A program made the position numbers and the translations under genes. A DNA stretch of 63,844 bases, filler included, from Reclinomonas americana ATCC 50394 (Eukaryota): assembly GCA_048213135.1 (NCBI GenBank). It is 7 parts of 3 records of this genome, joined end to end, with 100 filler letters (N's around TTAATTAATTAA, not from the genome) between each part and the next. Parts side by side here need not be neighbours in the genome. Positions count along the whole stretch, not along the records: positions 1 to 4,331 come from PS015157.1; positions 4,432 to 9,600 come from PS015157.1; positions 9,701 to 24,375 come from PS015157.1; positions 24,476 to 28,893 come from PS015157.1; positions 28,994 to 50,056 come from PS015157.1; positions 50,157 to 61,852 come from PS015158.1; positions 61,953 to 63,844 come from PS015159.1. One strand, 5' to 3'. Below, piece by piece: positions 77 to 63,420 of this stretch (positions are counted from its first letter, which is position 1; every line of letters begins with the position of its first letter). Below the pieces are notes generated by a model. That model was not told where the DNA came from, did no database searches, and saw only the letters and a list, made by a program, of their open reading frames with translations.

Positions 77-3000
77 AGTATCACATACGGCGAGCTGTAC
101 GGTGCCTACAATCTGCTGACACAAGAGTGGTTCGACGGCATTGTGCCGAAGATTGCGCGTACGTGCGTCAAGGACATCACCAACGACATCAAGTGGATTG
201 TGTTTGACGGCCCCGTCGACACGTTGTGGATCGAGAGTATGAACAGCGTGCTGGATGACTCCAAGCTGCTGTGCCTCGACAATGCCGAGCGCATCAAACT
301 CAACAACACCATTCGTCTGCTGTTCGAGGTGCAAGACTTGGCCGTCGCCTCGCCGGCCACCGTCAGTCGATGCGGTATGGTGTACATTGACCCCAACGAC
401 CTCGGCTGGCGACCAGTGGTGCAGACGTGGCTGGCCACGGCCGCGCGCCAGCATATTGCGGCGGAGCACATTCAGCATCTGAATCAGCTGTTTGAGGATC
501 ACGTCGAGGCGGGCATTCGCTTTGTGGAGAAGGAAGTTGCGGTGTTTCCCATTCACCGCCAGCTTTCCAGCCCCGTAACTCACATTCTCTTCGCTCTCTC
601 CGTGCAGTGCAAGCAAGACGTGGTGATGCCGTACCAGAACCTGGTGCAGAGCCTGTGCGACCTGATGGTTGCGCTCTTCCTCAGCGACTCTAAGCTGCGC
701 ATCGAATACTCGGCCGAGAACACCGAAGTCAATCGCCAGGCGGTCAAGATGATCAACATGATGTTCGTCTTCTGCTACGTGTGGTCTCTCGGCGGCAACG
801 TCAACACCAACTCGCAAGAGCTTTTCGACGGATTCGCGCAAAAGCAGTTCGAGTCGATTGGCCTGCCGGTTGGCGGCACCGTGTACGACTTTACGATTGA
901 CTTTGCCGAGCGCACATTCGTCAAGTGGGAGAAGCTGGTGCCGGCATTCACCTTCCGACCGGAGCAGTCGTTCTTCCAGATTCTGGTGCCCACGGTCGAC
1001 ACGGTCCGCACCACATTTATTGTCGAGTCGCTGCTGCGCCTCAACAAGCCAGTGCTGGTCAACGGCAACACCGGCGTCGGCAAGTCGGTGATGATTGTCG
1101 ACATGTTCCAGCGCCGCGCCGAGGATCTCGGCATTGTGTACACCACGGTGCAGTTCTCGGCGCAGACCAGCTCCGGTCGCACGCAGGAAATGATCGAGTC
1201 CAAGCTCGACAAGAGACCAAAGGTGAGAAAGAGTCTAGTGTGTGCCTTTTTTTTACCTTGCACACTCTGCTCTCTTTACTGACCCTTCATTCGCCTCCAC
1301 AGGGCATGATTGGTCCGCCGCCTGGTAAGCGCATGGTGGTCTTTATCGACGATCTGAACATGCCGCAAAAGGAGACATTCGGTGCGCAGCCGCCGGTGGA
1401 ACTCGTTCGCCAGCTGCTTGGCATGGGCGGCTTCTACGATCGCACCGATCTGTCGTGGAAGGGTGTGGAGGACGTGACGGTGACGGCGGCCTGCGGTCCG
1501 CCGGGTGGTGGCCGCAATGAGACCACTCCTCGCCTGCTGCGCTTCTTCCATGCGCTGTGCGTGCCGGAGCTGTCGGCCGAGTCGATGCAGCGCATCTTCA
1601 CCTCGATCCTCGCCGGTTTCCTCAAGCCGTTCGTCATTGACATTCGCGAGAAGGCGAGCAACGTGGTGCGTGCCAGTGTGGAACTCTTCCTCACCATCCG
1701 CCGCGAGTTGCTGCCGACGCCGAGCAAGAGCCACTACACCTTCAACCTGCGTGATCTGGCCAAGATCTTCCAGGGCATGATGCAAGTCAACCCGCGTTTC
1801 GTCAGCAACCTCGAAACATTCGGCCGGCTGTGGGTGCACGAGAGCATGCGCAGCTTCTACGACCGCCTCATCTCCGACAGCGACCGACGCACCTTCTGCG
1901 ACATGGTGTTGGAGTTGGCTCGTCGCCAACTCAACCTGAACTGGCAAGAGGAGGACATTTTCGGCGACCGTCCGGTGCTGTTTGTCGACTTTTTGCACCC
2001 AGAGGCCGACATTGCCGATCGCTACTACGAGGAGGTGACGGATCCGGCGGTGTTGCCGCGTCTGCTGGACGACTACCTCGAGGACTTTTGCATTGCCAAG
2101 AACCAGAAGATGAAGCTGGTCTTCTTCTCACAAGGTGCGTGCTCATCATGTACAGGTGTCTGGCGCGGACCGCACATTGTGTTTTTGACACCATGTATAT
2201 TGTTGTGTGTTGCAGCCGTACAGCACGTGTGTCGCATTGCGCGTATCGTGCGCCAGCCGCGTGGCAATGCCCTGCTGGTCGGCGTCGGTGGTAGTGGCAA
2301 GCGCAGTCTGACCAAGCTGGCCGCTTTCATGTGCGGCTACAACACGTACCAGATCAGCATGAAGCGCGATTACCAGCTGAAGGACTTCCGCGAAGACCTC
2401 AAGCAGATGTACATCAAGGTCGGCGTCGAGGGCAACCCGCTGGTCTTCATCTTTAGCGACTCGCAGATCACCAACGAGGCGTTTGTCGAGGATCTCAACA
2501 ACATTCTCAACTCGGTGCGTTTTTTTGTCTCATGGCGGCCCGTGACCTTATCGTGGTACTCATTGTTTGTGCGTGCTCAGGGTGAGGTGCCGAATCTGTT
2601 CGACCCCGACGAGAAGGAAAAGTGCATTGCGGACACTCGTGAGGCGTGCCGCAAGGCTGGACTGCCGGAGACACGTGACGCTGTGTACTCGTTCTTCATT
2701 CACCGTGTGCGTGAGAACTTGCACATGGTGCTCTGCATGAGTCCTGTCGGCGACTCGTTCCGCACACGGTTCGTCCCCATTGTGTGTGTGCGCCTTGCTG
2801 CTTTTTTTGCGATCTTCTCATCCTCTTTTCGTCTCAGTGTGCGCATGTTCCCGTCGTTGGTCAACTGCTGCACCATTGATTGGTTCGACGAGTGGCCGGC
2901 CGATGCGCTGCTGGCCGTGGCGCAACAGCATCTCACCACCAAGGAGGTGGTGGATGTTGAGCTGGTGCCCAAGTACTCGGCGCTGTGCGTGGTGGTGCAC

Positions 3001-4331
3001 GAGTCGGTGGCACGCATGGCCGATCGTTTCTATGCCGAGTTGCGCCGCCACTTTTACGTGACGCCGACGAGCTACCTGGAGTTCATCAACACCTACGGCA
3101 AGCTGTTGAAGGCCAAGACGGGCGAGCTGCGCAAAGCGCGCGACCGCCTGCGCAAGGGTCTCGACATTTTGGCCGACGCCGAGTCCAAGATCACGGTCAT
3201 GGAGGAGAACCTGAAGAAGCTGCAGCCAGTGCTGAAGGTCAAGTCGGTGGAAACCAAGGAGCTGCTGGCGCGCGTCGATGTGGAACGTGCCGACGCTGCC
3301 AAGACGCAGCAGGCCGTCGCCGCCGATGAGGCCGTGGTCAATGAGAAGACGCGTGAGGCCGAAGCCATCAAGACGTCCGCCGAGGCCGATTTGGCCGAGG
3401 CGCTGCCGGCTCTGGAGGCCGCCAACAAGGCGCTGAACGCGCTCAACAAGGGCGCCGTGGCCGAGGTGAAGGGCTACGCCTCACCACCGCCGCTCGTGAA
3501 GCTGGTCATGGATGCTGTGCTGATTCTCTTTGGCGAGAACAAGCCCGACTGGGAAATGGCGTGCAAGAAGTACCTGACGAACGCGCAGTTCCTCACCAAC
3601 TGCAAGAACTTCCCGAAGGACGACATCACCGACAGCACGCTGCGCCGCCTCCAGGTCTACATCAACGACGAGAACTTCAAGCCGGAGATTGTCGGCGGCG
3701 TGTCGGAGGCCGCCAAGACGCTGTGCATCTGGGTGCGCGCGCTCAACACGTATGCGCACGTCAGCAAGGAGGTGGAGCCGAAGCGTCAACGCCTGATGGC
3801 CGCCCAGCAGCAGGTGTCGGAGATGCAAGCGGTGCTGGCCGTGAAGCAGTCCGAGCTGCGCGAGATTCAGAACAAGCTGAATGCGCTGGAGTCGCTGCTG
3901 GAGCGCACCACCAAGGAGCAGCAGGATCTGGAGGCGCAAATCATCCTCAGCGAGGCGCGCTTGGAGCGTGCCGGCAAGCTGACGAACTCGCTGGCCGGCG
4001 CCAAGGTGCGCTGGCAGGAGACGGTGGTCGAGTACGAGAACCAGATCAAGGATCTGCCGGGCGATATCTTTGTGGCCGCCGCCTGTGTGGCCTACTACGG
4101 TGCCTTTACTGGCTCCTACCGACAGGAGCTGGCGGAGATGTGGCGCAACAAGTGCCGCGAGCAGGGCATCACTGTGTCGCCCAAGTTTGATCTGGCCAAG
4201 GTTCTCTCGGATCAGGTCGAAGTACGCGACTGGCAGATCTGGGGTCTCCCGAACGACCCGCTGTCCATCAACAACGCCGTGCTCACCACTCGCTCGCGTC
4301 GCTGGCCGCTCATGATTGACCCGCAAGGCCA
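77..4331 (+). CDS. Axonemal inner-arm dynein heavy chain, DNAH6-like (internal fragment, AAA2 to start of AAA5; partial at both ends)
   Basis: Motifs SITYGELYG, FDGPVDTLWIESMNSVLDD, FEVQDLAVASPATVSRCGMVY, P-loops GNTGVGKS and GVGGSGKRS, FSAQTSSGRTQEMIESKL, stalk coiled coil, RWPLMIDPQG. GT-AG introns at 536-607, 1223-1302, 2135-2215, 2515-2580, 2769-2837. Ends at a gap. DNAH6 subclass is from recalled motif similarity. Confidence 0.95.
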
Positions 4332-4375
4332 NNNNNNNNNNNNNNNNNNNNNNNNNNNNNNNNNNNNNNNNNNNN

Positions 4376-4387
4376 TTAATTAATTAA
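4376..4387. other. Artificial six-frame-stop scaffold linker TTAATTAATTAA in N padding (also 9645-9656, 24420-24431, 28938-28949, 50101-50112, 61897-61908)
   Basis: Identical 12-mer centred in a 100-nt N block six times. Confidence 0.97.
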
Positions 4388-4431
4388 NNNNNNNNNNNNN
4401 NNNNNNNNNNNNNNNNNNNNNNNNNNNNNNN

Positions 4432-5030: not shown

Positions 5031-8000
5031 TTACGGGAAGATGCCGAGGCTCTTGTAGGCACCGGCAATGCGCGTAATGGCAATCTTCAGCGCAGCAGTG
5101 CGGTAGTTGAGGCTCTCGGCGCGGGCAGCGGCCGACACCTGGCGGGCAATGTCCTGAATGCCCTCCATCACCGTCGAGGTGACCAGAGTGACCTCGTTGG
5201 GACCCTCGGCGGCGGCGCGGCGCAGTGACTTCTCAATCGGAGACGAGATGCTCTCCACGTACGACAGGAAACGCTCATTAAAATTCTCCTCGTAGCGCTT
5301 CTCCTGCAAGGATGGGAGAGCGCACAGAGGTGAGATGAGGAGGACAGGGACAGAAGGGATGCGATGGGATGCGAACCATGCGGCCGTAGCGAATGTGAGT
5401 GAGGCCCTTCAGCCACTCGACGTAGTGAATGAAATCGGCCGACGGCACGACGCACAGGTCGGGAACAACAAACTGCACGCGTGCATGAGAATATAGAAGG
5501 GGAGGAAACAGAGAGAAAAGAGAGAGGAGTTACGTACCACGTTGTGATCCTCCAGGTACTTTTCGGCGGCAGGGGTGGTCGGGTTGACGGCAGCCTCTGC
5601 GTAGATCTTGAAGACAAGACGATGCGAAGTGAGACACACACAATGGAGATGCGAGGGAGCATCCATGAAAACATGCAAACCTTGCAGGAAATGAGGTGCA
5701 CATTGTCGGCGTTCACGGCGTTCTCCTTGGCTGCCGGGATGAACACGTCGACGGGCTTGCTGAACGCTGTTGCCTCGGAGACGGGGTGGGCGCCCGACAG
5801 ACCCTCGAGAGTGCCGCGCTTGTTGAAGTACTCAATCGCCGCCGGGATGTCGATTCCCGACGGGCTGTGCACGGCCGAATTCTTCTCGATGATCGTCGTC
5901 ACCACACCACCAGTCTCGGCGATTTCGAGCGCCAACTGACGGCCGACAAAGCCGAAGCCTAATGCAGGCGAAGAGGAATGAGCACACCATAGGGGCTGAG
6001 ACACTCTCTCTCATTTCCGTACCTTGCAGAGTCACCGTCAGGCCGTTGAAGCTGAAGCTCTTGCCCCACTGCTTGGCAAAGTTGACGTCGTGAATGGCCT
6101 TGAAGCGGCACGACTCCTCAATGCCCGTGCGGAAACCGCGGCCAAAAATGGTGTCGTGGCCTCGCAGGCCGCCCTGCGCCACCGACTTGCCAGTGACCAC
6201 AGCATGCTTGTTGACGTCGTACGGGCGAGCATTTCGGTAGGCGTACAGCACGGCGCCGAGCTCGGCTATAGGAGGGGAGGGGTGGGGGGAAGGGGAGGGG
6301 AAGGGGAAGGGGGGAAAGAGAACGTGAAGTCAGCGGCAGGCCATGAGGGACATAGAGAGAGAACACAGCAAACACATGGCGAAGAGCCACAAGCATGCAA
6401 AGGAGGAGCCACCCACACACGAGAATCACACACGAGAAAAACACATGTAGGACGACAGACTCACGTTGATCGCAGCCGTAATCAGGGGAAATCTGCACAC
6501 CATCAGTCAGCTCCACACGAACTGCGCAACACTGTTGGCGGCAAACACACACTCACCAAACCAACAGACGGGCCCAGGTATGAGTGATTAATCAAATCTT
6601 GGGCGTACAAGCGGCAAACGCGGTGAATCTGACGGCCTGTGCGCACGCCGGGTGAGTGAGTGACAAGATGGGAAACACAGCTCATGCAGGCACGAAAAGC
6701 AACGCACTCGAAAACTTCGCCTTGTTGATCTTGATGCCGCCCTTGGCACCACCCCACGGGATGTCGGCCAGAGCAAACTGCGCGCGAAGGAAAAGAGTGA
6801 GCAAACAGAGGGGGAAGTAGGGGAAGAGGGGCGACGAGAACAAAAAAGAATGAAAGAAATGAAAGAGAAGCAAGAGAGAGAGGGGGGAAGGAAGAAGGAG
6901 AAGAGGGGTGACTGAGAAATCAAAGAACGAAAGAACTGAAAGAGAAGCGAGAGAGAGAGAGGGAGAGGGAGAGAGGGGGAAGAGGGATCGATGATACAAG
7001 AACGCAGACCCACAGAGATTGGGAAAGACAGAGAGTGCGTGAACGAGAGGACGAGAACGCGGACTCCGAAAGCAAACACACAAACTTGAGAGAGGAAAGA
7101 GATTACGATGCACATTGAAAGGTGGAAGTCTGCGCGCAGCTCACTCAAAACACGATGCGCATCTCTTTGCGTGAACGTGTGTGACGACACGCGAGCTGGA
7201 CAGACTCCTTCGCATGTGCATCTCTGCGGGACCTTGCACCAGCCTTGCTGACTTTCTCGTTTTCTTAGTGCGTGTGTCTGACACGCCACAAGAACTGGAC
7301 AGACTCCTTCGCATTATGTACATCTTCGCGTGTGACTTCGCATCTGCTTGCTGAACTCTTGCTGACTCTCTCGTTCTCTTAGTGCGTGTGTGTGACACGC
7401 CACAAGAGATGAATCAACTCGCTCTGCACGTGCATCTCTGCTGGCGGCCTTGCGCCTGCCTTGCTGAACTCTCGTCTCCATTTCCGACTGACTCACTATT
7501 TCTCTCTCTCTATCTGCACGTGACTCTATTTTCTCTGTACGTGCAAACGAGAGAGATCCACACAAACGAGATGCGTGATACCTCCCACGCACGACAGCGC
7601 AAGGATCTAAGGCAGCAAGAGAGTGAAACACGAATGCATACACACACACGCACACAAACACATCTCTCCCTCCCCCTCTCTCCCTTCCCCTTCCCCTCCC
7701 TTCCCCCCTCCGACACTCAACTCGGAAGCTATTGACGGCGGCCAGAGTCTCCATCTCATCCTGCGTCACCGACTCGTCAATCACGAGTCCGCCCTTGGTC
7801 GGTCGCGAAATGTCCGAGTGGATGACGCGGAACGCCTCAATCACTTCCATGCCGCCGTCGTCCTTGATCAGCGGGAAAGACGTCTTGTAGATCAGCTCCG
7901 GCATGCGAATCACCTTCAGGAAGCCGCCAGTCGCCGGCACGTGACGCGCAGCAAGGTCGTAGAAGTGATCCTGTGGAGAGAGAGAGATGGAAAAGAGAGA

Positions 8001-9182: not shown

Positions 9183-9485
9183 ATGACGACGGGCGTGGCA
9201 TGGCGACGCCCCAAGCCCGTTGCGTCACCAACACACACACTCCTACACACTCTCCCTCTCTCACTCCCTCTCTCCATAAAGGTTCGCGTTAAGGGAGCCG
9301 ATGGGCGGCACTTTTTGCGTTTTGAGACCGTCTCTGACGGTGTTCCGTTCTGGGTGTCGGAGGCGCACCGATCGGAGGTGGAACAGCTGCAAAGTGTGAC
9401 GGGAAGGTCGCCGGAGGCATTGCCGCGACCGGTCGCCACTTGGGTCGATCCTGATCGTGTGGTCGTAAAGTGGAAGGTATACACA

Positions 9486-9576: not shown

Positions 9577-9834
9577 CAGACGAGAGAGACGAGACGTAAG
9601 NNNNNNNNNNNNNNNNNNNNNNNNNNNNNNNNNNNNNNNNNNNNTTAATTAATTAANNNNNNNNNNNNNNNNNNNNNNNNNNNNNNNNNNNNNNNNNNNN
9701 GGTGGAACGAAGACTGCAAAGTAGTGACGGGAAGGGTACGGCCGGACGGGCGACTTGTCCGCCGACCGGTCCGGCCGACCTTCGGGTTCGGTAGTCCTCG
9801 TATCGTGTGGTCGTAAGTAGGAAGGTAGTACACA

Positions 9835-9887: not shown

Positions 9888-12800
9888 TCTCACACACACG
9901 CACACACTCACACACATACAGAGAGAGATGATCAGAGAAGTCGATTGTATGGAGCCGCAACGATCACTGAAAAGAGGGCCTCTTTGAGAATGAGAAACGA
10001 GCAGGGTGTGTGAGAGAGAGAGATCATATTGTGATAAGAGAGTGTAAGAGAGCGATCGTTTCATCTATTCTGTTCAATCGTGTCTTGATCGTTTCTTCTT
10101 CGCTTTTCTCACGTGTTGGCGTTGTTGCTGTTGTGTGTATGTCTGCTGCTAGCGTTCATCTTCCAGCGGTGCTCTTGTTCTATGGTCTGTTTTCTTTTCC
10201 TCAAAGAGGACCTCTATTCAGTGATCGTCGCTCTCCACTCTCTCCTCTCGGTCTTCGCGCTCTGTCGTTGCCTTCTTCTCATCTCCCCGCGATCGTCTTC
10301 TCCACTCTTTTTTCTTCTGCCTTGTCTCTCTTTCTCTCCTTCCATCAGTCTTTCCTTTATTTTCTGCCTTCTCTCCACTCATTGCTTCTCAGCCCCCTCA
10401 CCTGCCCGCATTCTCCTCGTCTCCACTCGTCCTCCCTCTCCACTCTCCTCTACTTATTCGTTCTTCCTTCCTTCTCCCTTCCTCGCTTCTCATCCCTCCC
10501 CCCCTCCCCCCCTCCCCCCTCTCGCCAGCGCCCCGCACCCTCCGCCTCCAACCCCATCATCCCACCACACACCGACCTGGGTCAGCTGGCACTGTGGATG
10601 TGCGACAAGACGCAGCTGTTGACGGCCAGGTATCATCAATCCACTGCAGTGATTCCCCCCAACCCTCTACACCTGTACTGACTGTGCGTTTCACTCGCGC
10701 CAGGGAGCGCTGGTTTGCTCACGTCGCTGAGGTGCCGTTTAGCAACGAACTGCACATGTCGCTGCGTGAGTTCTTGCAGTACGAGGATGACGTGGTGGAG
10801 CCCGAGGTCTGCTCGCCTCCTCCCCCTCCACCCCGTCTGCTCCCAACCTAATTGGCTACTACCACATCCAGATTCCCGAGCTCTTCTCGTCAGTGAGCAC
10901 CAAGCGGCTGTCGTTCCGCAACTGGGATCCGGCGGCCATGGTGCAGGCCGTCTCCAAGAACGATTTTATGCTGATTCCTCACGAACCGGTGCATGTGGAC
11001 CCGCATTTCGGTGTCGCCTGTTGCGTGCCTCGCCATTGTCGACACACTGAACGCCACGACCTCATCCATTTTGCACCACCACAGGGCGACTGCGACGAAT
11101 CGGCGACGAGGTGGAGGGCGTGTGTCTACTGGCCTACGGTTGGCGTACACCGTTGCAGCAGTTGGTGGCCACCTTTCGACGCCAGCGGCGGCGACGGCGC
11201 GAGGCTGGCGAGCTGCACTTTATCGACCACCACATCACGTGGTCAAACTTCCCCAAAGAGCTGATGGCGGAGGTGCTGTTTAAGCGGTTGGCCGCCGGCT
11301 GCGAGTCAGTGTGGCCGTCGGCCCTCGAGGTCAATCTGTGCTCGATGAAGGACGACGACGCTGTCCTTCAGGTGCCGCTGCTGCCCAACTATACTGGTGC
11401 GCAGTGTGCAAGTGTTTGCACAATGTCACTCACTTACTCACTCGTGCCGACGACAGGTTCCCGTGCGCTGTCGTTTTTATTCGAGGAGGAAAGTGCCGAA
11501 GAGGCGCTGGTGACTGTCCTCGACGGTGCTGCCGATCTGTTTGACATGCGCGAGTCCAACGATCACTGCAGTATTCGATTTGCCGTCACGCGTTTCGTTG
11601 CGTAGATCAATGCAGATAGCATTCGCTCGGCACGCCTCCTGGCTGACTGCGTGCCTGCGCAGGAACACCTCGGCAAGCCGAGCCAAACCGATCCCGGCCG
11701 ACCAATGCATTGCGTGCGTGTGTGCGCGCAGTGGAAGACACGCAACAAGGATCCGTCGGCCGACGACCCACCGTCCATGTCCCTGAATCTGTCGCCCGAC
11801 GCACGCGTATTCCGCACGGCCGGCTCGTTGCAGAACTCACCCGAGTTATTACGTTCTCCAGCCAGCCGCGTCTGTTTTTTCCCAATCCGAGACTTACTCG
11901 CAGGTTTTTGTTGCACAGGTCGACTGCTCCAGAAGGTAGAATAGCATCGTCGTGCTCATCGCCTCTTTTATGCAAACTGTTGACGTGTTTTCATCCATTG
12001 TTGCGCGCAGCGCAAGCGGCCGACACCATTCCCGGTCTGCGGGCCATGGTTGAGCAGATGAAGAAATTCGAGAAGCGGTTTGCGCAGCTTGCCGCTGTGG
12101 AGCCTTCGCCGCCGCCACCACCACCACCTCCGGCGCTGGCCACATCGACGACCGCAGTCACACACACCGTCCAGTCGACGGCGCCGCCCAGTGGGCAGTC
12201 GGCGACCGTGGCACAAGCGTTGCGCACGCACTCACTCCTTTCTGTGGCGGTGAATACCCGAAGACTAACTGTTTGTTTTCGTGCTTTGTTTCTCGGCAGC
12301 AGCGATACGCATGCGCGGGGAGAGACGCATGGAGAAGGCGCGGTCGATTTGTCCGACGTGGATGAGCCGCGGCACAAGCGTCCTCGTGCAGGTCTCTCAC
12401 CACGCACCCCGTCCTCCTCGACGTGGCGATTCCGTCGCAGCAGTGCCGATGCAGTTGCGTAGCGTGCCACGCACTCTCCCGCCACGCGTGTACACTGCCA
12501 ACACCTGATGCGTCGGTGTGCCCCTGCAGCAAGCGGATGACGGCAACGATTCTACATCTCCGGACCCGGGGGATGGCGAGTTCACACCTCGGCGCACACA
12601 CCGTCTGCCGCCCAGATCCCGCTCACGCGGCTCCAGCGCACCATCGACCCCACGGGAGTCGATCCCAACCGATGCTCCGCCCGTGACATTCGCAGCTGTA
12701 GCCGATTTGGTACGCGTGCCGGAAGACGATGACTTTGATTCGGGCTCGTCGGGTCAGTCAGTCTTGTCAGTGAGTGGCCTTGTTTTTTTTCGCTCATCCT

Positions 12801-15800
12801 TCCACAGATGACACGCTGTCTGCTGGCGGTTCGGGCGCCGCCGCACCTCACATTTCCGTGTCTCTCGGATCGGCGCCACCTGGCGAGGTCAGTGGCCTCG
12901 GTTGGTGCTTGCACACTGCGGGTGTCATTTGACATCGCGTCGAACAGGGTACAAAGGAGGAGACTGCCGGCGATGACCCGCCAGTACGACGAATTCGCAA
13001 GCTCGGCGCCCAGGGATCCAGCAAAGAGCACAAGAAACGATTGCACAGTGTCGCCGCGAGTGACACCTTCGGCGCCTCCGTCGCTGGTGACATGGCCGCT
13101 ATCGATGCTTTCGCGACTGATAGCCGCGCCGAGGCGCCATGGATGTCGGCTCCCACAGTGTACTTTGAGCCGCCAACGCCAGTCGAGGGGTGAGAAACGA
13201 TTGGTGTTTTGGAAAACACTTGTCACTCACTGCGGTGATGTCACAGTGTTCGTGCTGAACCGCCTCCTGAATCGTCCCTGGTCGACAAATTCCAGCACGT
13301 CAAGTCCCGTTTCCTGGGTGTGGTCGACAGCTGCGGCCTGTCGGTGGAGATGAATACGGTGCTCGGCTTCCCCTCCACCGCCGAGTTGACGCGCCTCCAG
13401 GAGTCACTGCTGGAGGCCAATCGGTGAGCTTGCGTGAATGTGTTGCGTTTTCCTTGTCATTCGATGCTCATGCGCGTCGCCGTTACAGCATCACACATCA
13501 GCACTTGCTGGAGTGCCGCGGACTGCGCGACCGCGTGTCCAGTGTGGATATGATGCACGATGAGGACCAGCTTCGCCACATGGTACATACATGCTGTTTC
13601 CATCATGTCACTTGGCTCCTAACATTTGCTGCGCGCGCAGCTGGATCCACCGTCCCCACTTCCCGACCTGTTTGGTGCAGTTGCGTCCTCGGCCTCCCTT
13701 GTGTACATGCTCACGAATTCGCTGTTTGCCAATCGCGCGAGTCTGCAGTCACGAGAGGCCTACGGCCAGTTGCTGTACCACTTGCAGCGTGCACCGACAG
13801 TACTCTCGGCACTGGCATTGCGGGTGAACGAGGACCATGCGGCAGAGTTCGCCGAGGCTGTGGTGCGTGGCGGCGTGGAACAGTGTGTGTGGCGCAAGAA
13901 CTCACCCGCATCACAGGTCACTGATCTCTTTTCGTACTACTCGACAAACGAACGGTTGCTGTGCGCCTTTATTCATCGCCTCATCTTGGACGTGCGCGTT
14001 CCGGCGTTGTTGGCCAGCCTTCGCGCGTCTCCGGATCCAGCTCTGCGACAGCCGCAGTCGGAGGTGCTCATGCACTGTCTGCGCGAAATTTCCAAGGTTG
14101 ATTGTGCCCAGCTGTTGTTTTCTCCACTCCCACTTCTTCTTCTTCTTCTCAACCAAGTGCGGCAGAGGGAAGATCTCAACTGGTTCCTGCGTCACACGGT
14201 GTGGGACTCGGTTGTTCGTGAACTACCGACCACCCCGTTCGACTTGGTGTCCGAGGGCTGGATGGACAACTTGGAGTCGCTCAGTCGCCGGCTCATTGAT
14301 CAGCTGCTCATGGTTGGTTCTGCCAGTCTTTGACCCCCTCTTTTATTGTCACTGCGATCCAACGCTTCTTTCTTGTGAAAAAGGATTCCTCCATTCGTGC
14401 GCTCCCGTCGGTGGTGATTGCCGCCTGCCAGGCTGTCAGCGCCGCTGCTGGCGGGTCGGCTGCCGCAGCTCAGGCCGGCAGCGAATCGACAAGCGGAGAT
14501 GTGGGACCGACCGTCGGCACGCAGTGCCTGCTGCGGCTGCTGTTTGGAGTGCTGCTGAAATCGTCGCTGTCGTCCATGCTTCTGTCGGAGGATCCTTCGT
14601 TGTTTGTCGGGCGTCGTCTGCTATCCGATCGTTGCGTGCACACGGTTTGTGAGGGTCACATTCGTGTTCTCTCATCACCACAATGTGCCAGGTGAATTCG
14701 CCGAGGCTGTGAGGCGGCCAACGCACTCGTTCACCAGTCTCACAAATCCTTTCCTTGTCGACCCGCTGCACATTTTTGACGACGCTGAGGGCGAGGCACG
14801 TCGCCTGTGTTTTGCGTGCGTGTGGCGGTGTGAACGGCTGACTGACGAGTGTTCCGTCTGCAGGTGGTCAATCCTCTCTTTCTTACGAACACAATGCAAG
14901 CCAACGCCCAGGTGTCGGTGCGCGAGATCTTCTTGCGGCAGTGGAACTTGTCGGTGCTGGCCTCGATCGTGGCCACAGTGACTTCGGGCTCCACCGAATT
15001 GTCCGTGCAACCGCCTGGCTCCGACAAGTCCGTGTCGTTGACGCCGGTGGTCGAACGCCTATTACACTCGCGTCTGTCGCAGCTCATTGATTTCGCGCAC
15101 CGGGTTCGTGTGCCGCGCGCGGACGCCAAGCCATTTCGTGCCTAACCCACCCCGTGCGTACAGATTGAGAAGAACGAGCGTCTGAAACAGGCCGAGTTGC
15201 CGCGGCCGCCAGAAGTCTCCGATCTGCTGGTCATTCGCACCTCCAGTGTGTACCTCCTGCACCGCCTGCTGCGAGAGAACCCGTCGACCATGTTGCCCGA
15301 CACTGCGTCGTCGGGGACCAACAATCCTGCTCGCTGGGTCACGTCGGTCGTGCGCGACAATCTTGCTGGTGCCGAACTACCGCCGGTCCACGAGGCGCAG
15401 CTCCTTACCGCACCAGTCATTATGCAACTGCTTCCGTTCAGGCCGCTTGGCAGTTGCGCGGAAGGGAGACGAGAGAGTGTTGTTGTGCAAGAGGGAGGCC
15501 AGGCCATTCAACTGATATTTCTCCTCCACACACAGTCGCACAGTTGCAGCTCGGCCGCGCCAATAACACAGTCGGCACTCTTCACGAGCCGGGTGTGCCG
15601 CCGCCCTCGCTCATCGAGGGTACTCGTGCAGTGTTGGAGCGCGTTTCGCGTGTGTATGGCCGTGTGCAGCCGGTGCAGGAGTTGGAGAGTGCCTCACCGG
15701 TTACGCTGGTCGACATGAACAATCTGATCCAGTTGATGAGCACGCACCGTCCGGCGGTCGTGGCCATCCTGCAGTACGTCTCTTGGATGAAGGTGCGTCG

Positions 15801-24107: not shown

Positions 24108-24475
24108 GGCCAGCTTGTGCTTTCTCCGCCTACAAGGGTCACGCAACGATGTGGAATAAAGGCAACACACAACACTCTGATGAATATACGAGCGCCGGTT
24201 TGTAAGAATGTAACTGGGAGGACACACGCACCTGTTCTCAAACCACACCTGCGCAGGCCAGCGGTAGCAGACGACAATGGAGCGTGTGCATGCGTCAGAA
24301 AGAGCGAGAAAAAACACGAGACCACAAAACCAAAACAAAAAAAAGTTGTGAGCGCAACTTGAATGCGATTCACAGNNNNNNNNNNNNNNNNNNNNNNNNN
24401 NNNNNNNNNNNNNNNNNNNTTAATTAATTAANNNNNNNNNNNNNNNNNNNNNNNNNNNNNNNNNNNNNNNNNNNN

Positions 24476-50156: not shown

Positions 50157-53011
50157 TCAACCAATGCTCCCGGCGCTGACTCCACACCGCCCCTCCCAAC
50201 GACGGCGCTCGCAAGGCCGCCGCTCACCAGGCGCCCGCTCACCCTCGCCCACCTCCTACGGGCGCGACATCAACTCACCGCCACTCATTCCCGTCGGCCA
50301 ATCATCGCCTCCTCAGACACCAGCAACAGCAACAGCAGCGGCTCCCAGCAATCATTCCAAATCGGCAGTGTCGGCGCTTGTGAGTGGTCTGGCACGTTAC
50401 AAGTCACTGGCAGGTGGCGCCAATGGTGTGACTGTATGACGAGCATGCCCACTTCTCTCTGTCTGTCTGTCTGTCTGTATCACTCACACACGCACATTGT
50501 CGGATTCACGCAGCAATGACTCGAGCACAGGCGCAACGCCATCGCGCCTCCATGATGATGTACGACAAGGAGGTGCGTGTTGTGCGTGTGCAGAAGCAGT
50601 CGATATGTAAACCCGGCTTGTGTAATCACATCATCCGCATCGACAGCTGCGCGTGACTCAAAATCTCGTCAACGAGGACCGCTGGTTGCCGCCAGTCAAC
50701 ACGCACATCTACCGTCGCGCCTCGGTGGCCGGCATCATCACTGTAGCTTCGTCGCCGCCGAGTGGCTCACCGGGAGCTGCAGCCAGCGAGCCAGACGTGC
50801 ACAACAATAACAATAGCCATGACGATGATGGCGATGAGCGGCCACGAGCATCGCCACTGCAGCCGCAGCAGACGCTGGCGTTGATGACGGTGGAGAAGCG
50901 GATGCAAATGCGGCTGGCGGAGCTGCGCAGCGATAAGGAGCAGCGGCAGCAGTTGCTAAAGCGAGTGCACGAGTACGAGAGGGAGCGCAAGCCGGCGGCG
51001 CCACCCACGGCCGAGTCGTCGTATGTCGAGGCGAATAAGGAGCAGGCGTGGCTGCGTACGCGGGAGGCTTTGCGGCAGCATCTGCATTTGCTGGTGAGTG
51101 GTTTGGTCAGCCTCGTGCTGCGCTCTCGAACACTCAACACCTGTTGTGGTCAGAGTGAGCAGGAGAGTTTGCGACTGACCCAAGCGCTGAGTCGCAAGAC
51201 GGCGCTCACCGCCGAGCAGCGCGAGCACGAGGAGCTGCTGGCACGTGAGCTGGCGGAGCGCATGGAGGAGGCGGCGGAGCGGCACGAGTTCTGGGTGCAT
51301 GTGTATCCGATTGTTCGTCGCCTGCAGCGGCGCTGGTTAGGCTACTCGGCAATGGCATCGCGGATGGCTGTGCTGGAGCGTGCACTGTCCACGCACCGGC
51401 ACGATGACTACATTCAGCGTGTGCGAATGCGCGCCGCTCGATACCTGGAGCGTGTCTTCTTTCCACTCGTCAAGGCCCGCATCCGCCTGCGTCGGCGGCG
51501 ACTGGCGGAGATCATTGGCCGCCACACCCTCTCGCTTTCGATCGGCTGGCGCATTCATCGCAAGCGCCGACTGGCCACCGTCATTATTCACGCCATTTCG
51601 GCCTTTCGCCAAGTGCGCGATCTGGTGCAGCACGTGCGGCGGGCTCTCATGCAATGTTGCGTCACTGCTTCACAAAAATCAGTCGAGGGTGTGCACAGTG
51701 GATTTTCTGACTCTGTGTGTGTGTTTTCACCGCAGACAAACTGTCGGCGGCGGCAGTGCGCGACTGGATTCGGTGCACGCTGGCACGCCGTGCGCTGGTA
51801 CATCGACAGTGGCGACGCTTCTTCGAGCGGCATCGTGCACTCTGCCTGCGCCGTCTCGGTCAAGGGAATTCGTCGCGTGCTCCCTCTCGATCGCCGTCGC
51901 GCCCAGCCTCCCCGGGCAGTCGACTGTCGCCCGCTTCACTGCACACGACCAGTCTGTCGAGCTCCTCGTTCCCCGTGAAGCGGTCACCGTCGTCGCGACC
52001 ACCCACACCGCCACAACTGCGTCGCACCCAGTCGTCGATGTCACGGCAGCCATCGCCACGCTCCGTGCCCGCCGAGTTGGCGCTGACTGGAAGCCTGCTC
52101 TCGGTGCCATTGTCGATGTTGCGCAGTGCAGTGCTCTCTTGTGTATTACTTGGTGCGCGATATTGACCGTCGCTTGCCACAGGGACGCCAAGAGACCACG
52201 CCGCGACGCGCGCTCCGACGACACATTCTTCCTCAACTTCTTCACTGTGTGCGTCATGCAATCGCCGCGTGTGTGTTGCGTTACACTTCAGCTAATATCG
52301 TGAGACGATCTCGCGCACCGCAGAGATCAAGTTTGCGATCGTCAACCGTTGGTGGATTATGGTGTGGCGGCGGCGCGCGCCATGATGAAGGAGCACGTGC
52401 GCGAGCTTGGCCACTTTAGTCACGAAGTCGACCAATTCCGCATGGATGTCGAGGTGTGGTGCCTGCTACCAGGCATGCATGTGATGTGGTGCTGGTGGCT
52501 CACTCTGTTCTCGTCGCAGCGCCGACTGATTGAGGCCGCCGTCCGACACACGCTGATGACGGGAGGCTTCGAGTCCAGTGACGACACACCGACGTCCAAG
52601 TCCAACGATGCCCTTTACGCGGAGCCAATTCGCGCCTCGCGTGCGATTGTGCGGGCCGTGTCGCTCCTCGGCGGGCACATCAACTATCGTGCGCTGATCG
52701 ACGAGAATATGCCCACATCCACGCTGCCGGATGAACCGCGGGAGGAAGTGGCAGAGTGGCTGGCGGAGGAACGGCCGCATAAACCACTCCGCCGGGCGCT
52801 GCTTGGCGAAGCGCAGCTTCGCGAGATGTACGAGGTGAGTCCCCAGTTTACACAAACAGAAAGTGCGAAGGACAACTGATCCGTGGCGACACAGATGACG
52901 TACCAGCTGGCAGTGGTCGATTGCGCTGCAGCACTCAACGTAAGCGAGGACTCGGTGACTCGTCGCTGGCCTCTTTCTGTCTGCTGCGCCTGGGCACCAC
53001 CAACACAGTGA
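50157..53011 (+). CDS. Hypothetical coiled-coil protein with Arg-rich IQ-like segments (5' end may lie in gap)
   Basis: Coding-like exons (EKRMQMRLAELRSDKEQRQQLL, RAARYLERVFFP, AAARAMMKEHVREL) linked by GT-AG introns. No family recognised. Confidence 0.5.
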
Positions 53012-53091: not shown

Positions 53092-54948
53092 CATGGGCGA
53101 CTTTTGTCACAGTCTCCTCGACACCTCCTCACTGTTTGGCTTCACCAACATTGCGCGCACCCTGCACCAGCGCGAGGCTGGACAGGGGGCACCCTCGCTG
53201 CGTTTCCGACTGCACTTTGCCGGGGCGGCAGCCATCAATGATCACCGCATGCGCCTCGCCCACACAGTGCGTGATCCTTTTGCGTGTGTACAGTGTGTCT
53301 CCCCCTCCCGCATCCCTCACAGTGTGACAGAGCACCATGGACGCGCACGATGCGTCGTCGTCGCGCAGCAACAAACTGGCATTCTTGAAGCAGCGCTCCC
53401 GTGTGGTGGAGGTCTTGTGCGCGGAGCAGTTTGTCATCGTGCTCACCAAGTCGGGCGTGTGTGCTGTCTTTCATCGTCGTTGCGTCGGTGGCTGGAGTAT
53501 GGCCTGTGATGGTGATGGTGTTGGATGAAGTGGGTCTACAGAAACGCATTTCATGATCACAGATTCGCACCGCCGTGTGTGTTACCTCAATGTGCAACCG
53601 GATGAACTTGTCAGCAGTGTCACACACAACCGCGCCAACCGCTCCATCATCACCGTGTCGGTGCACAGTGCCGACAGCTATCAGACGTTGCATTGCCGCT
53701 CCACTCCGATCGAGTTGCGAGACAACTCCACTGCGCACGCGCACGCAGCGCTGTCTTGTTGCACTGCTGACCATTGAAGTTGATCGTCCTACTCCTTCTC
53801 CCTCTCTCCTCTGCCGTATGCAGATACCTCAGCAACAAGTGGGACGCCGGTCTGCAACTGTTCAAGTTCGAAGAGCTGAAATGGCCGGCGTTTGTGGAGT
53901 TTGACGAGACCGACGTGGACTGCCCCTACGTGCTGACCTACTCGTCTGTCACACACATGTTCCGGCTGTGGGACGGCTGCAACTACGACTTGGTGCTCTC
54001 CATCAACGACGATGGTGTTCAGGATGTGAAACTCAGGTCTCTCACCACCATCGCTTCCTGATCATGACGAGTGATTATCTCACTGACTGACTACGACACG
54101 GCAGCCCTGGCATCCTGCTCATTGTCTACCAGCGCACGGAGCACCACCTCCCTGTGCGTCTCGTCTCCGTCCGCGAGCGCCGCGTGATCAAGGCATGCAA
54201 GCTGCCGGTAGACCCGCAGTACCGCATCGATCTCATCGAGTTGATGGAGGACCGCGTGGTCATCAAGCAAGACGGCTGCCCACTCACCATTCATGATGTT
54301 GCGTCTCGTCCTCTCGCGGGCGTCCGTGAGGCTGTCGGCTCAACAACGTTGCATTCGCAGCTGACGCTGGACACACGCCTGGTGGTTCCCGAGTCGCACG
54401 ACATTGTTCCGAAGCGCTTTCTCTTTCTGCAGCAGAGTAATCTGTTCCTGACGCTGTGCGCCAACGAGGTCACCGTGTGGACCGTGACGGGCAAGCGAGT
54501 GATTTCGTTACGCTTGCTTGTCATGCATGCTAGCGCTACCAGCATTCATGCTTCTCATCTTCGCTTGCATGCTGCAGGTTCTTCACCGATGTGGATGACA
54601 AGGAGCGTGTGCAAAACTTCTTCCTCAGCCGCTGCCAGACTCGCGTGTTCCTGTACCAGAAACCGCAGGATTTCCGCCTCACAACGGCGGCTGGAGGTGA
54701 GAGATCTTGATCTCGCTTATTTATACGTCTGTTGGTGCTAATCTTTCCTGTTCTGAGTAGCCACGACAGGTGCCAGTCTGTCCATCATCGACCTTCGCTC
54801 CGGCGACTTTGCCGTGGCGCGACTGGCGGCCCACACCACTCCGGCGCCGGTCGCTCTGCACCAGGTGACGTCGGTTTGCATCGATGAGGAGCAGGGCACG
54901 CTGATGCTCGGCGATACGACCGGTGCGGTGCACTGCTGGAGCAAGTAA
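53092..54948 (+). CDS. Uncharacterised WD40-like beta-propeller of a family I recall from plants and protists
   Basis: LAFLKQRSRVVEV, LTKSGVCAVF, RRVCYLNVQPDE, SIITVSVHSADSYQTLHCRSTPIEY, LKWPAFVEFD, VQDVKLSPGILLI, LMLGDTTGAVHCWS. Introns 53267-53330, 53479-53562, 53714-53823, 54037-54104, 54298-54360, 54507-54577, 54697-54760. Confidence 0.8.
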
Positions 54949-58150: not shown

Positions 58151-61100
58151 TCAGTCGTTCTCATCGGGTTCTCTGAGAAGCACATTGTCGACCATGGGTC
58201 GCGCAAATGGCAGCAGCACAGACCGCAAGCGCTGTGTGTATGCCTCGTGGCTCAACTCGCCAGGGAAGCCGTTTCTGTGCAGACAGGTGAGCTAGATACG
58301 TCGGCACCGCCACTCGCAAAGCACATACCCTGGTTCTATGACATCGGGTATATGGATCGCTTCAGCACTCGTGTCCTCGTTGGGGAACACAGTGGCGAGA
58401 CAATGCCGCAAGCTGTCCACATTATTCATCTCGTAGTGACAGACGAGAGGCAGCCCGGAAAATTGCTGTCGCGTACGGCCGATGAGCTCGAGCATCACGC
58501 TTGCGGCACAGATGGGAACTGTAAAAACAAACCAAAAACGCATGCTGCGACCGCCGATATATGCTGTTGACACGACTCGGCACAACAAATGTGGGATTGA
58601 GATAGGGGACGCCAGCCGCCAGCAGTTCGTACACCTCGAGCGCCTCCAGCGGAGTGCCCAGCTGCAACAATGCTTGAGTGCGCTCCGCTCTCAGTGACGT
58701 GCAGCCGCAGACACACTCACCCCCACGGCCACGCGCACTTCTGTGCCGAATCGCTTGCGCCAATCGTCATAAGAGATGAATGGTCGACGGCGCATATTGG
58801 GAAACGCGGCCTCTAAGTCGGTCAGGCGCTCCTCGCACGTGTAGTACACCACATCAACAACCGCGGCCAGTGCACCAAACACGTCCAGCTCCGTCTGCCG
58901 GTAGTCAGCCACGGTCTGCGTGCCACCACCATCCGCGTGAGTCTGCGGATCACTATTTTGCATCACATCGTGTGCATCCGCACCTTGCCGACAACGTAGG
59001 CCGCCACATGCGATCCAACGGGCGGCGTGTGCTGCTTTGCCTCGTCGCCTTCGGCGTCACTCGCCACCGCTCCCCGAAACAGATCGTCGCCAAGGTAGAA
59101 GCCCAAGAATGTGTTGCACGAGTTTGGCGTGCCGCTGAGAAAGTTGGCCAGCGGGAGGAGGCCGTCAAAGTACGTGCCCGACTTGTGACAGCGGCCGAGT
59201 GGACTGAGTACGAAGACTGCAGAGACGAAGAATTGTGAGACAGGTACAACACAGCGAATACGCAATGCGACGTACTGCGCTCCGTCGCCGGCTCCATCGC
59301 CTTCAGTGCAAAACTGACAAACAAGCGCCGCACCACGTCTGCCACGTACTTCTCGTCCACGATGAACACGCAGTCGCCCAACTCGAAGCAGTGCTCACGC
59401 AAAACCAAGTCCCAGTGCGTCATGCCATAGGTGCCGATGAGATCAGTATCGAGCTCACGCGACACCAGACGCAGAGAGTCGAAAAGGATTGTGTTGCCAC
59501 GAGGTCCACGAGCTGTGTGCATCGACGGATGATGAGCATCGAACAGGGTGCACGAAGCAAACTCGCCAGCAGAAAGCACAACTGTTCTTCTCATTGTCCT
59601 CCACCCACTCCGGTGTGAGGCCGTCCACGCGGGTGACAATCTTGAGCTTTTCGAGAATGCTCGGATCGTAGTCGACGGGAGGCATCCGCTCTGGTTCCTG
59701 TTCACCCTGCCCTTCTCGCGGCTTGCTGATCTGCGTCGAGCGCCGCATCGGCTCCCCAAGCAGCACTCTCAGTCTGCTAATGTACTCGTCCTCGGTGTAG
59801 TCGCGGGGAAGGGCTCTGCGCAGGCGGGTAAGTGAATGTCGCAAGTGTGAAAGGGTGAGAAACAGGGCACGAACGATATTTCGCGGGCCTGGCTCGAGAG
59901 GTACTCGATCGCTGCATGCATACACGCTAGTGCGCTGCTGGTGTCCTCCGTGTCGTACACGCACGTTGCCGGAAGGATCGTCTGCGCGAGAAGAGTGCAG
60001 TCAGTCCACACCTCCCGTGCCACCCTACACACTACGTTCCGGGTTGCACGTACCAGCGCCGGGTACTGTATGTGGCGAGTGACATCGTAGGTGATGGAAA
60101 AGGCGGCATTCATGACAAAGGCACCGGCACCGAGGGCCTCCATTGCCATCGGATCGTTGACTGGCTCTGTAAGGCCGACGATCACATCGATCTCGTCGCG
60201 CAGTGCGCTGCGCAACTTGTCGCGATCGGCGTGGTACGACGGCGGCAGGCGAACCACCTTGCCGTGTGTGTATGCACCCTCCAGCGCCGGCAGTGTCATC
60301 CGTGCGTCGTAGTACACTTTCGAGGCCAGTGGGACCAGGGCAGCGATGATGTGCCGCAGACTGTCGTACGATGCTGGATCCTTGCCACTCAGCAGCAGTA
60401 CTGGGTGACCGGAGAAGTGCGTTCGCCGCTGCGCCAGCACCGCCGGGGGTGCCGGCGGCACAAAGAAACCCAAGAACGAGTTGCACGGTGCCCCGGAGCG
60501 ATACGACACCAGGTACTGCGTCAGCGGGTACGCCTTGCCGTGCTCACGCAGCGGTGCATCGCACACCTCGTCCAGCGACAGCGAGTAGATTTGCCGAAAC
60601 ACATCCACCTCCTTGTACCGCAGTCGTTCGCGCTCCTCCGGCTCCATTGCCTGCCGATCGGCGTGTGGCGACGGCACAAACTGCGACAGCAGGTGGTCCC
60701 TGATATGCGGCTGCCACGCCACTTCGGTGATATGCACACAGCGCATCGGCGTATCTTCGCAGTGCCGATTGAACTGCTTGCGCCACTCCGTCATCGACGC
60801 GGTGATGATCACTTGTCGCACATGCAGCTGCTCCAGCCCGTGCACCAATGACTCCACCACCACCTGCCGACCGGATTGCGCTCCATCTTTTTCTTGCTGG
60901 TCAGCACTCGGAGCAGCAGCAATGCGAACAGAACACAAGACGCAACTCAACACGACTCGCTTCCACTCGCGGGCATGCACGTCGCAGCGAAGCAACACCG
61001 TGAGCGTCGACGGATCAGCAATGATCTTTGGTGGTGACGAAGGAGGAGGTGTGATCGGAGCCTGAGGTGATGGCGATGCAGGTGGTGGTGGCGGCGATGG

Positions 61101-61637: not shown

Positions 61638-61684
<47 letters not shown>

Positions 61685-61952
61685 TTGACACGTGTGTGTG
61701 CAGAGGTGTGTTTCCGCGGTGGCCTGGTCGTTGCTGGTGTGGTCATTGGCTTGTGTGCGATCACGTTCCTCTACTCGATTGTGGCCATTCGCAAGTTGCG
61801 ATGATGATGATGATGCATTGTGTGTCTTTGTGTGTGATTGACTCAAGAGAGANNNNNNNNNNNNNNNNNNNNNNNNNNNNNNNNNNNNNNNNNNNNTTAA
61901 TTAATTAANNNNNNNNNNNNNNNNNNNNNNNNNNNNNNNNNNNNNNNNNNNN

Positions 61953-63420
61953 TGCGGTAAAACACATCGCGGCGATGGAACGCAATGCACGGCTTGTTGG
62001 CGACCATGTCTGTGCACGCGAGAGTCGCTTTAGAGAACACTGACGACGTGCGGAGAGCAACGTGGTCCCCACTGACCCTGTTCGTTGTCGAACACGTGCA
62101 TTACGCCATCCACCATCTTGTAGCGCTGCGTGGCCACCGGCAGCTGCGGCCCGTTCCACGGATCGTAGCTAACCTGCGGCAGTGGAACAGCGCCGTCCAC
62201 CTCCTCGCACTCCTCTCGCAAAACTTCGTCGGCACGTGGTGGCGCTCCCGACGCCTCATCACCTGTGCCGTAAATCGTCTTGCGCAGGTACACATAGGAC
62301 GGATTCTGCATGCACACGTGAGGGACGTGCGTTGGCCATCGCAAAAGTGAATTGCGACGTAACATCACTGGCTTCGGCGTCCCATCGGCACTTGTGACGA
62401 TAGTCCATGCACTCGAGCAACATTTCGGCAACCTCAATCGACTCATCCGACACATTCTCCTCCGTGATCGACAGCAGACCGAGATACGACGTCTTCGAGG
62501 TGAACGGGCCCAGCAGCGACTGCCCCGAGGCCATTTGACGGTCGGCTTGTGGCTGCAACACGTGGATCAAATCGCGCAGTTGATCAAACAGCCTGGTGAA
62601 CGGAGAGGACATGTGAGCTAGCCGTAGGGCGATTGCATCATACAGAAGAAGAATCGCGCAACTTGGTGTGAATGTTGGCACTCTGCAGGCTCTGCACGTC
62701 CACCAGTGGACTCGGTGTCGACGGCATGTGCGTCGCGGCCAGTGCAATGGCAAGACGCTTCTCCGCATCGGCTGTGAATGGCACGTGAGCGCACAAAAAG
62801 ACTTAAATTCGGCGACTGTGGTTTTCGGGCAGACAAACCTTGCGACGAGCGCGCTTCGTCCTCGTCCGGTCCGGGTGTCGGCATGTCGTATTGAGCGTAC
62901 GAACTGGCGGTGGAGGACAGCTTGCCCATGCCGCCATCCTCGGGGAACAACCGGCGAGTAGGGTGCGCAGCCGGTGCCGCAGCAGTTGCTACCGCCGGGC
63001 CGGCCGACGCTCCAACAGCAGTCGCTGCGCCAGGGGGTTTTCGCACAAGGTCGATGTGAGGAACCGGTGGTCCCATGGCGCCGACATGCGTAGCAATCGA
63101 CGCGGTGTGCAGTTCCGCCGCAGCAGCTGCTGTAACTCCATGGCTGCCTGCATCAAATGCCGACTGGGGCGTGTGAACGTGCGATGTGTGTTGGGGAGGG
63201 CGGAAGGCGGCGCTCGGTGGCAACGGTGGCATGCTCTGGTATCGGCCCGGCCCCAAGAATCCACCACCTCCAGACTGCGTTGGTGAGCCGACTGGTGAAT
63301 GCGACGGTGATGGGCCGGTGGTGGCCGTTCTGCGGCGAGACTCACAGTGAGGCAAGACGAGGAGAAGGAGGAGACCCAAACCTCACTGTCTCCAAACACT
63401 GTATGTATGAGCGTTGTCAT
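61953..63420 (-). CDS. AMP deaminase-like protein, N-terminal portion (catalytic domain beyond the gap; start uncertain)
   Basis: ESIEVAEMLLECMDYRHKC, YKMVDGVMHVFD and FHRRDVFYR resemble the pre-catalytic AMPD N-terminal motifs (R.KY, Y.M.DGV..V, F..D). Confidence 0.65.

Follow-up and report, generated by a model that had tools for sequence, protein, structure and literature searches.

Can a sizeable share of the introns in one genome begin with a donor whose conserved letters lie one base deeper in the intron than usual and, if so, how would such a donor be read and where would it be cut? The question is raised by a stretch of 63,844 nucleotides (nt; filler included) from Reclinomonas americana ATCC 50394 (assembly GCA_048213135.1), referred to here as the window. 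In it, an earlier note had traced introns by eye and listed 35 donors with an additional T after the initial GT, so that the G found at +5 in ordinary donors falls at +6. Such shifted donors form a class of their own. Among 148 introns, 38 (26%) open with GTT[GAT][CA]G, 88 carry G at +5 and 22 have other donors, which corrects the earlier estimate of roughly a third (35%) to about a quarter. The exon-side preference of the class is displaced by one base as well, and at nine sites protein homology places the cut at the GT. Shifted donors are present on all seven contigs of the window.

Two classes of 5' splice site

Introns were traced with a Viterbi gene finder whose score combines codon usage, the length and composition of introns, a 3' matrix and a branch-like motif, with the donor specified as GT only; gene finders relying on codon usage alone were too noisy and were set aside. 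This donor-agnostic parse returned 196 introns, is itself noisy, and recovered 19 of the 35 claimed sites. Its commonest donor hexamer was GTTGCG (19/196 against 1.95 expected; binomial P 2e-13), with GTGAGA (9) and GTGCGT (8) as runners-up. A two-component motif mixture with background, fitted to the 196 donors, returned nnG/GTGcGt and gaa/GTTGCGT (the slash marks the cut) at the first pass and unguided. The mixture was then fed back into the gene finder and iterated, and this self-trained parse gave 148 introns in 23 gene models; in the final table, one mis-parsed intron was swapped for the homology-backed intron running from 7721 to 6778. The earlier claim that these words are frequent, genuine intron starts with the ordinary signal displaced by one base is thus borne out, as the mixture finds both registers unaided. 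For the individual sites it holds in most cases: 31 of the 35 listed donors were recovered by the self-trained parse and 7721 by homology, while 9219, 27498 and 35267 were not recovered. Seven shifted donors absent from the earlier list were added by the same parse (11020, 13680, 14631, 24358, 51656, 52118 and 60946).

The words themselves lie where they had been reported, at 35 of 35 coordinates and on the right strands. They comprise 26 GTTGCGT, three GTTGCGC and one each of GTTGCGG, GTTGCGA, GTTGAGT, GTTACGT, GTTACGC, GTTTCGT, GTTTCGC, GTTGCAT and GTTTCAT. The G at +6 that had been ascribed to all of them is found in 33, with 35267 and 45298 as exceptions, and G at -1 is absent from all 35. 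Across both strands there are 38 copies of GTTGCGT, whereas 100 dinucleotide shuffles average 14.85 (maximum 27; none reaches 38). The 82 GTTGCG words divide into 53 on the sense strand within predicted genes, 18 antisense and 11 intergenic, and the 33 that serve as donors in the self-trained parse are all sense. An independent-position model, the comparison proposed in the earlier note, predicts GTTGCGT at 0.87 of the 148 donors in the window, and 26 were observed. Seven GTTGCG words in the window are preceded by G, and none of these is a donor. One of them, a GTTGCGC in a homology-verified dynein exon (667-674, plus strand), is read through, and no homologue puts an intron there.

The anatomy of the two classes differs at the 5' end. 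In the ordinary class (n=88), G occupies -1 in 70 donors and +3 in 50, there are 34 C, 26 A, 23 T and 5 G at +4, and T occupies +6 in 58. In the shifted class (n=38), there are 19 A, 10 T, 9 C and no G at -1. T at +3 and G at +6 are invariant, G occupies +4 in 34 donors, C occupies +5 in 37 and T occupies +7 in 29, with no conservation from +8 on. The contrast in G at -1 (70/88 vs 0/38; Fisher P 9e-19) is also seen in the donor-agnostic parse (51/85 vs 0/19). The shifted class is not, as had been supposed, a copy of every ordinary word plus T: GTTGCG accounts for 33 of the 38 shifted donors, yet GTGCG for only 17 of the 88 ordinary ones, beside GTGAG (21), GTTCG (10) and GTACG (7). In five of the 22 other donors the consensus is likewise delayed by one base (two GTTGTG, and one each of GTGACGT, GTCGCGT and GTCTCGT), and a wider count that adds them gives 43/148.

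Downstream of the donor, the classes are alike. A CTVAY branch-like motif is found in 32/38 shifted and 66/88 ordinary introns, with CTCAC, CTCAT and CTGAC as its forms in shifted introns, as in the ordinary class; its median distance to the 3' end is 20 nt and 19 nt, respectively. Intron length shows no class difference (P 0.98), C stands at acceptor position -3 in 34/38 and 75/88, and all 38 shifted introns are GT..AG with the frame restored, by construction of the parse. Shifted introns are ordinary short U2-type GT-AG introns with an extended 5' signal placed one base deeper in the intron. Intron phase is a separate observation: ordinary introns are biased towards phase 0 (57/20/11 in phases 0/1/2), while shifted introns are evenly spread (14/13/11; P 0.01).

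The sharply conserved 7-mer, the flat phase distribution and the lack of an AG/G exon context might also be expected of an introner family, that is, of recent transposon-derived introns with a common 5' end. Against this, positions +8 to +16 are unconserved and lengths run from 58 to 944 nt. An all-against-all BLAST of the introns minus their first 7 nt gave microsatellite matches only (4 for shifted vs 165 for ordinary introns). As shifted introns resemble one another only in the donor word, an introner family was rejected within the window and is an extremely improbable source of the class.

The 38 shifted introns are listed below with the basis for each: "agnostic" and "self" denote the donor-agnostic and self-trained parses, and "isolated" a donor without another in-frame GT within 30 nt. 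On the minus strand, the donor is at the higher coordinate.

536..607 (+): GTTGCGG, dynein heavy chain; homologues, agnostic, self
6778..7721 (-): GTTGAGT, glutamate dehydrogenase (GDH), 944 nt; homologues
11020..11084 (+): GTTGCGT, unlisted earlier; agnostic, self
11597..11662 (+): GTTGCGT; agnostic, self
12219..12299 (+): GTTGCGC; agnostic, self
12454..12529 (+): GTTGCGT; self; isolated
13680..13748 (+): GTTGCGT, unlisted earlier; agnostic, self
14631..14691 (+): GTTGCGT, unlisted earlier; self
15453..15535 (+): GTTGCGC; self
17680..17740 (-): GTTGCGT, DNAJC11-like, last intron with 5 codons after it, tentative; agnostic, self
18210..18292 (-): GTTGCGT, DNAJC11-like; agnostic, self; homologues 4/21, rival 4
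18424..18492 (-): GTTGCGT, DNAJC11-like; self; homologues 4/21, rival 3
18655..18723 (-): GTTGCGT, DNAJC11-like; homologues 10/21; isolated
19332..19412 (-): GTTGCGT; agnostic, self
19490..19572 (-): GTTGCGT; agnostic, self
19866..19940 (-): GTTGCGT, ambiguous (GTGCGAG 6 nt upstream); self; homologues 2/21
24249..24358 (-): GTTGCGC, unlisted earlier, weak gene model; self
25479..25556 (-): GTTGCGT, protein kinase; Pkinase profile, AMPK alignments; isolated
28188..28253 (-): GTTGCGT; self
28461..28544 (-): GTTGCGT; self
32432..32497 (-): GTTGCGT; agnostic, self
33219..33290 (-): GTTGCGT, ambiguous (GTGCGAG 6 nt upstream); agnostic, self
33455..33525 (-): GTTTCGC; self
37684..37743 (-): GTTGCGT, LCAT-like; LCAT profile; isolated
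37937..38003 (-): GTTTCGT, LCAT-like; self; acceptor fits profile match start 92
42057..42118 (+): GTTGCGT, importin-5-like; one homologue, agnostic, self
44009..44079 (+): GTTGCGT, importin-5-like, not settled; self; homologue prefers 44000
48232..48302 (-): GTTGCGT, LRR gene; self
49215..49277 (-): GTTGCGT, LRR gene; agnostic, self
51656..51735 (+): GTTGCGT, unlisted earlier; self; isolated
52118..52182 (+): GTTGCGC, unlisted earlier; agnostic, self
53479..53562 (+): GTTGCGT, DUF7899 gene; PF25463 profile, exact
53714..53823 (+): GTTGCGA, DUF7899 gene; PF25463 profile, within one residue
54298..54360 (+): GTTGCGT, DUF7899 gene; PF25463 profile, exact
54507..54577 (+): GTTACGC, DUF7899 gene; agnostic, self; next exon without profile match
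60887..60946 (-): GTTGCGT, unlisted earlier; self
62306..62363 (-): GTTACGT; agnostic, self
62593..62662 (-): GTTGCGC; agnostic, self

Three further donors had been claimed:

9219..9225 (+): GTTGCGT, without a scored gene model around it, not recovered by the parse
27381..27498 (-): GTTGCGT at 27498, not recovered; the parse takes GTCTTCT at 27441 instead (same acceptor, 57 nt downstream, in frame)
35267..35337 (+): GTTTCAT, 71 nt, ACTCAC branch, CAG end

The last of these is likely an intron, but it lacks G at +6 and hence falls outside the shifted class.

Where the cut falls

Cut sites were placed independently of the gene models with a protein-to-DNA spliced aligner in which any GT..AG intron was allowed. 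For the dynein gene, almost every homologue gave the same five introns. The donor at 536 was chosen by 47 of 77 covering homologues, while 10 chose a GT at 542, 6 nt downstream. All 13 bacterial GDH homologues placed an intron from 7721 to 6778. The gene finder had missed this donor because the intron is 944 nt long, and it split the GDH gene there. This first GDH intron (6778-7721, minus strand) exceeds ten times the median length and contains CT/GT microsatellites. In the importin-5-like gene, spliced alignment to a single homologue, P0121, gave a gap-free junction at 42057. Among 21 distant homologues of the DNAJC11-like protein, 10 supported the donor at 18723, where no rival gathered two or more votes; at 18492, 18292 and 19940 they were split or silent. 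Most junctions of this gene are not fixed because its homologues are too divergent.

Profile matches that continue across an intron provide a second line of evidence. In the DUF7899 gene (PF25463), the profile runs from 21 to 68 before the intron at 53479, position 69 falls in the split codon and the match resumes at residue 2 of the next exon with 71, an exact fit; at 53714 it reaches 118 before and resumes at residue 4 with 124, within one residue; and at 54298 it covers 189-252 before and resumes at residue 8 with 260, again exactly. The LCAT profile fits 37743 exactly, with 92-154 before, 155 in the split codon and 156-251 after. At 25556, the Pkinase profile ends at 63 and resumes at 68 (within 1-2 residues), and alignments to PDB chains of the kinase AMPK, which cover query residues 4-71 and 103-190, agree with this donor. 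A word-based protein search gave no homologue for the DUF7899 exons and one for the importin exon.

Judged by these comparisons of sequence, nine shifted donors are fixed independently of any donor model: 536, 7721, 18723, 25556, 37743, 42057, 53479, 53714 and 54298. As a control, the same aligner was applied to two dynein loci of other eukaryotes, and none of 18 supported introns had a shifted donor. These loci came from a metagenome scan for close relatives; both are distant and share no intron position with the window. The DUF7899 gene also contains an intron (54037-54104, plus strand) whose donor, cag/GTCTCTC, belongs to neither class. Profile continuity across it is exact (187, 188 and 189 in succession), which indicates that true donors exist outside both consensus classes.

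These results bear on the concern that the introns were mis-traced, with the true donors at other nearby GTs and GTTGCGT frequent for some other reason. Several points count in favour of this concern and against the class as described. Class counts, phase and -1 statistics derive from a parse with a self-trained donor model, and the evidence for a cut at the GT is protein homology at nine sites and gene models at the others. When only an ordinary donor model was allowed, 9 of 37 shifted donors were kept and the other 28 were replaced by nearby in-frame GTs, so most shifted donors are not forced by reading frame alone. Only 8 of the 38 lack another in-frame GT within 30 nt (30 have at least one). 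At 19940 and 33290, the choice is ambiguous owing to an in-frame GTGCGAG 6 nt upstream, and at 44009 the importin homologue prefers GTGCTGA at 44000, 9 nt upstream, with the same acceptor. However, homologues or continuous profile matches pin down the nine sites, and homology, where present, favours the shifted donor over its ordinary-only substitute. The substitutes have no common motif, and the total score drops from 2839 to 2609. Both the -1 contrast and the GTTGCG enrichment persist in the donor-agnostic parse, in which the word heads donors at ten times expectation, and its sense-strand bias is strong. Taken together, these observations make mis-tracing a very improbable explanation.

A probable single helix in two registers

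How might a single splicing machinery accommodate both classes? Read from -2, the consensus of ordinary donors is AGGTGCGT; read from -1, that of shifted donors is AGTTGCGT. The latter has the eight letters of the former except for a T in place of G at the third, and this change puts the sole GT one base upstream. In the normal register, AGGTGCGT agrees with ordinary donors at 5.74 of 8 positions but with shifted donors at only 2.26; sliding the shifted donors by one raises their agreement to 6.13 of 8. The exon side behaves likewise: shifted donors at -1 (A in half of the sites, never G) look like ordinary donors at -2. When its exon positions -3 to -1 are scored on the ordinary columns, the shifted class has a log-likelihood of -152 if slid and -213 if left in place, compared with -161 under background. 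An exon-side preference displaced by one favours a +1-shifted U1 register over a bulge, an option that the earlier note had left open.

A bulge would keep U1 in its normal register and loop out one U of +2/+3. The T at +3 in all 38 sites would suit this, albeit by definition of the class, and a UU run would allow the bulge to migrate, a feature of human bulge sites; moreover, the downstream letters fit as well as they do under a shift. In a bulged helix, however, C9 of U1 would still lie opposite exon -1, and a preference for G there would be expected, such as ordinary donors show; shifted donors never carry it. With an exon log-likelihood 61 units below that of the shift, a bulge appears decidedly unlikely.

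The reading favoured here, and probably the correct one, is that one recognition helix is used in two registers while the catalytic steps cut at GT. The organism has an ordinary donor AG/GTGCGT, variable at +3/+4, and a second class A/GTTGCGT, and a single U1 small nuclear ribonucleoprotein would bind both forms through the same helix; the role of U1 as reader is taken from general knowledge of splicing, and a single U1 species for both classes is what we infer. In the shifted register, intron G+1 would face C9 of U1 and U+2 would be the sole mismatch, opposite C8, with U+3 paired to A7, G+6 to C4, U+7 to A3 and exon A-1 to U10. Later catalytic steps (U6, U5, Prp8) would then cut at the GT and not at the position indicated by U1. 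The near invariance of the shifted class (GTTGCG in 33/38) would follow because a helix with one mismatch tolerates almost no further ones.

Two features sit less comfortably with a simple shift. Given G at -2 in 14 of 88 ordinary donors, a shift alone predicts G at -1 in about 6 of 38 shifted donors, where none was observed. Canonical U1 has pseudouridines at positions 5 and 6, with which the nearly fixed C+5 and G+4, respectively, would make poor pairs; this points to a U1 with G5 and C6, or to another reader. The earlier note had put forward a variant U1 or U6, or a tolerant spliceosome, as a possible cause. An Rfam search of the window for small nuclear RNAs (snRNAs) gave no match at gathering score, and with E up to 1 returned only sub-threshold matches to microRNA (miRNA) and small nucleolar RNA models, most of them at 39180-39330.

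The alternative of a dedicated second recogniser, either a variant U1-like snRNA or a protein, supposes that GUUGCGU is read much as U11 reads the rigid minor-intron donor. It would account for a shifted class that is far more rigid at +4, +5 and +7 than the ordinary class is at +3 and +4, for letters at +4 and +5 that suit canonical U1 poorly, and for the difference in phase. Nevertheless, branch motif, branch distance, length and acceptor are alike in both classes, and both fit AGGTGCGT equally, so that one reader in two registers is simpler. A dedicated recogniser seems unlikely.

A fuller version of the two-register reading can be offered tentatively, with somewhat less than even confidence. 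In this lineage, one helix would routinely be used in two registers, the U1 register and cleavage would be uncoupled by one base in a quarter of introns, and the strict G+4 C+5 and the exclusion of G at -1 would reflect either a U1 5' end that departs from the almost universal ACUUACCU by carrying G5 and C6 or a second recogniser.

If true, this would have several consequences. Shifted U1 pairing has so far been treated as a rare exception, known from mutational work on a few human sites. With about one intron in four shifted, a genome would hold hundreds or thousands of natural test cases, which could show how a cut site is chosen independently of where U1 sits and how much mismatch the helix can bear. 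A differing U1 5' end or a second recogniser would mean that the way 5' splice sites are defined varies naturally, and across a whole genome. In practical terms, gene finders trained on one donor matrix would get about one in four introns of the genome wrong, as the substitutions under the ordinary-only model illustrate.

Genes and other features of the window

The window consists of seven contigs joined by six identical 100-base linkers, each made up of 44 N, TTAATTAATTAA and 44 N; it contains four more N gaps. It is not a single molecule, and genes cut at linkers (for example, dynein at 4331) do not carry on beyond them.

4332-4431, 9601-9700, 24376-24475, 28894-28993, 50057-50156 and 61853-61952: linkers

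The G+C content is 45-63% (per 4-kb window). The genes are eukaryotic and dense with short introns, of median length 71 nt, and the following are recognisable:

axonemal inner-arm-type dynein heavy chain
glutamate dehydrogenase, two protein kinases, LCAT-like lipase and importin-5-like protein
LRR protein, DUF7899 protein and animal-type haem peroxidase
DNAJC11-like protein

Four of the five dynein introns (536-607, 2135-2215, 2515-2580 and 2769-2837, plus strand) are multiples of three without in-frame stops, and tblastn reads through them for this reason. Over all 148 introns, no excess of multiples of three was found (length classes 52/46/50). The animal-type haem peroxidase domain (57087-58062, plus strand; Pfam E 2e-90) lies in one unbroken exon of 321 codons with an N gap upstream, and its lack of introns is unusual beside intron-dense neighbours. 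Finally, a hairpin-like low-complexity stretch at 39180-39330 (both strands) gives sub-threshold matches to many unrelated miRNA models, which are probably due to chance.

Comparison with known systems

Introner elements of algae and fungi supply many introns with a common end sequence; the introns described here have no similarity beyond +7. U12-type introns have the donor RTATCCTT and the branch TCCTTRAY, and they resemble the present case in that a second, rigid donor consensus stands beside a looser major one. A U12-type identity was nevertheless rejected, the donors being GTTGCG-like and no TCCTTRAY branch being found. The frequencies differ as well, with minor introns at about 0.36% of human introns according to PMC4856993, against a quarter here. 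A further difference is that the 3' features of the shifted introns are those of ordinary introns.

In 2012, Roca et al. reportedly described U1 registers with bulged nucleotides. Bulge and asymmetric-loop registers, as presented in Tan et al. 2016 (PMC4856993), likewise involve noncanonical U1 pairing and a longer effective donor motif. Such registers keep normal exon-side pairing, and the -1 statistics in the window argue against that.

The closest likeness is to human atypical 5' splice sites that are said to be read by +1-shifted U1 pairing, attributed to Roca and Krainer in 2009. In both cases, GU is followed by one extra base and then by the usual consensus, with a conserved G at +6, and U1 would be offset by one while cleavage stays at GU. 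According to PMC4856993, the test oligonucleotide for the shifted register is ACAGUCAAGUAUA and U6 pairing need not track the U1 register. For human donors in general, the abstract of PMC8283771 names the exon-end G and +5 G as the most conserved positions after GU, and the shifted class has neither. A search of the literature turned up human work and one tunicate paper, PMC13326754, in the available part of which a shifted register is raised merely as a possibility; no lineage with frequent shifted donors was found, although a lineage-specific paper may have been missed. In the human data, as given in Tan et al. 2016 (PMC4856993), validated noncanonical registers of all kinds number 3119, or 1.5% of 201,541 5' splice sites, against a shifted class of 26% of 148 introns here. 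The sites themselves also differ from human shifted ones: in the window, the extra base is nearly always T, the word that follows is GCGT and not AAGT, and -1 is never G.

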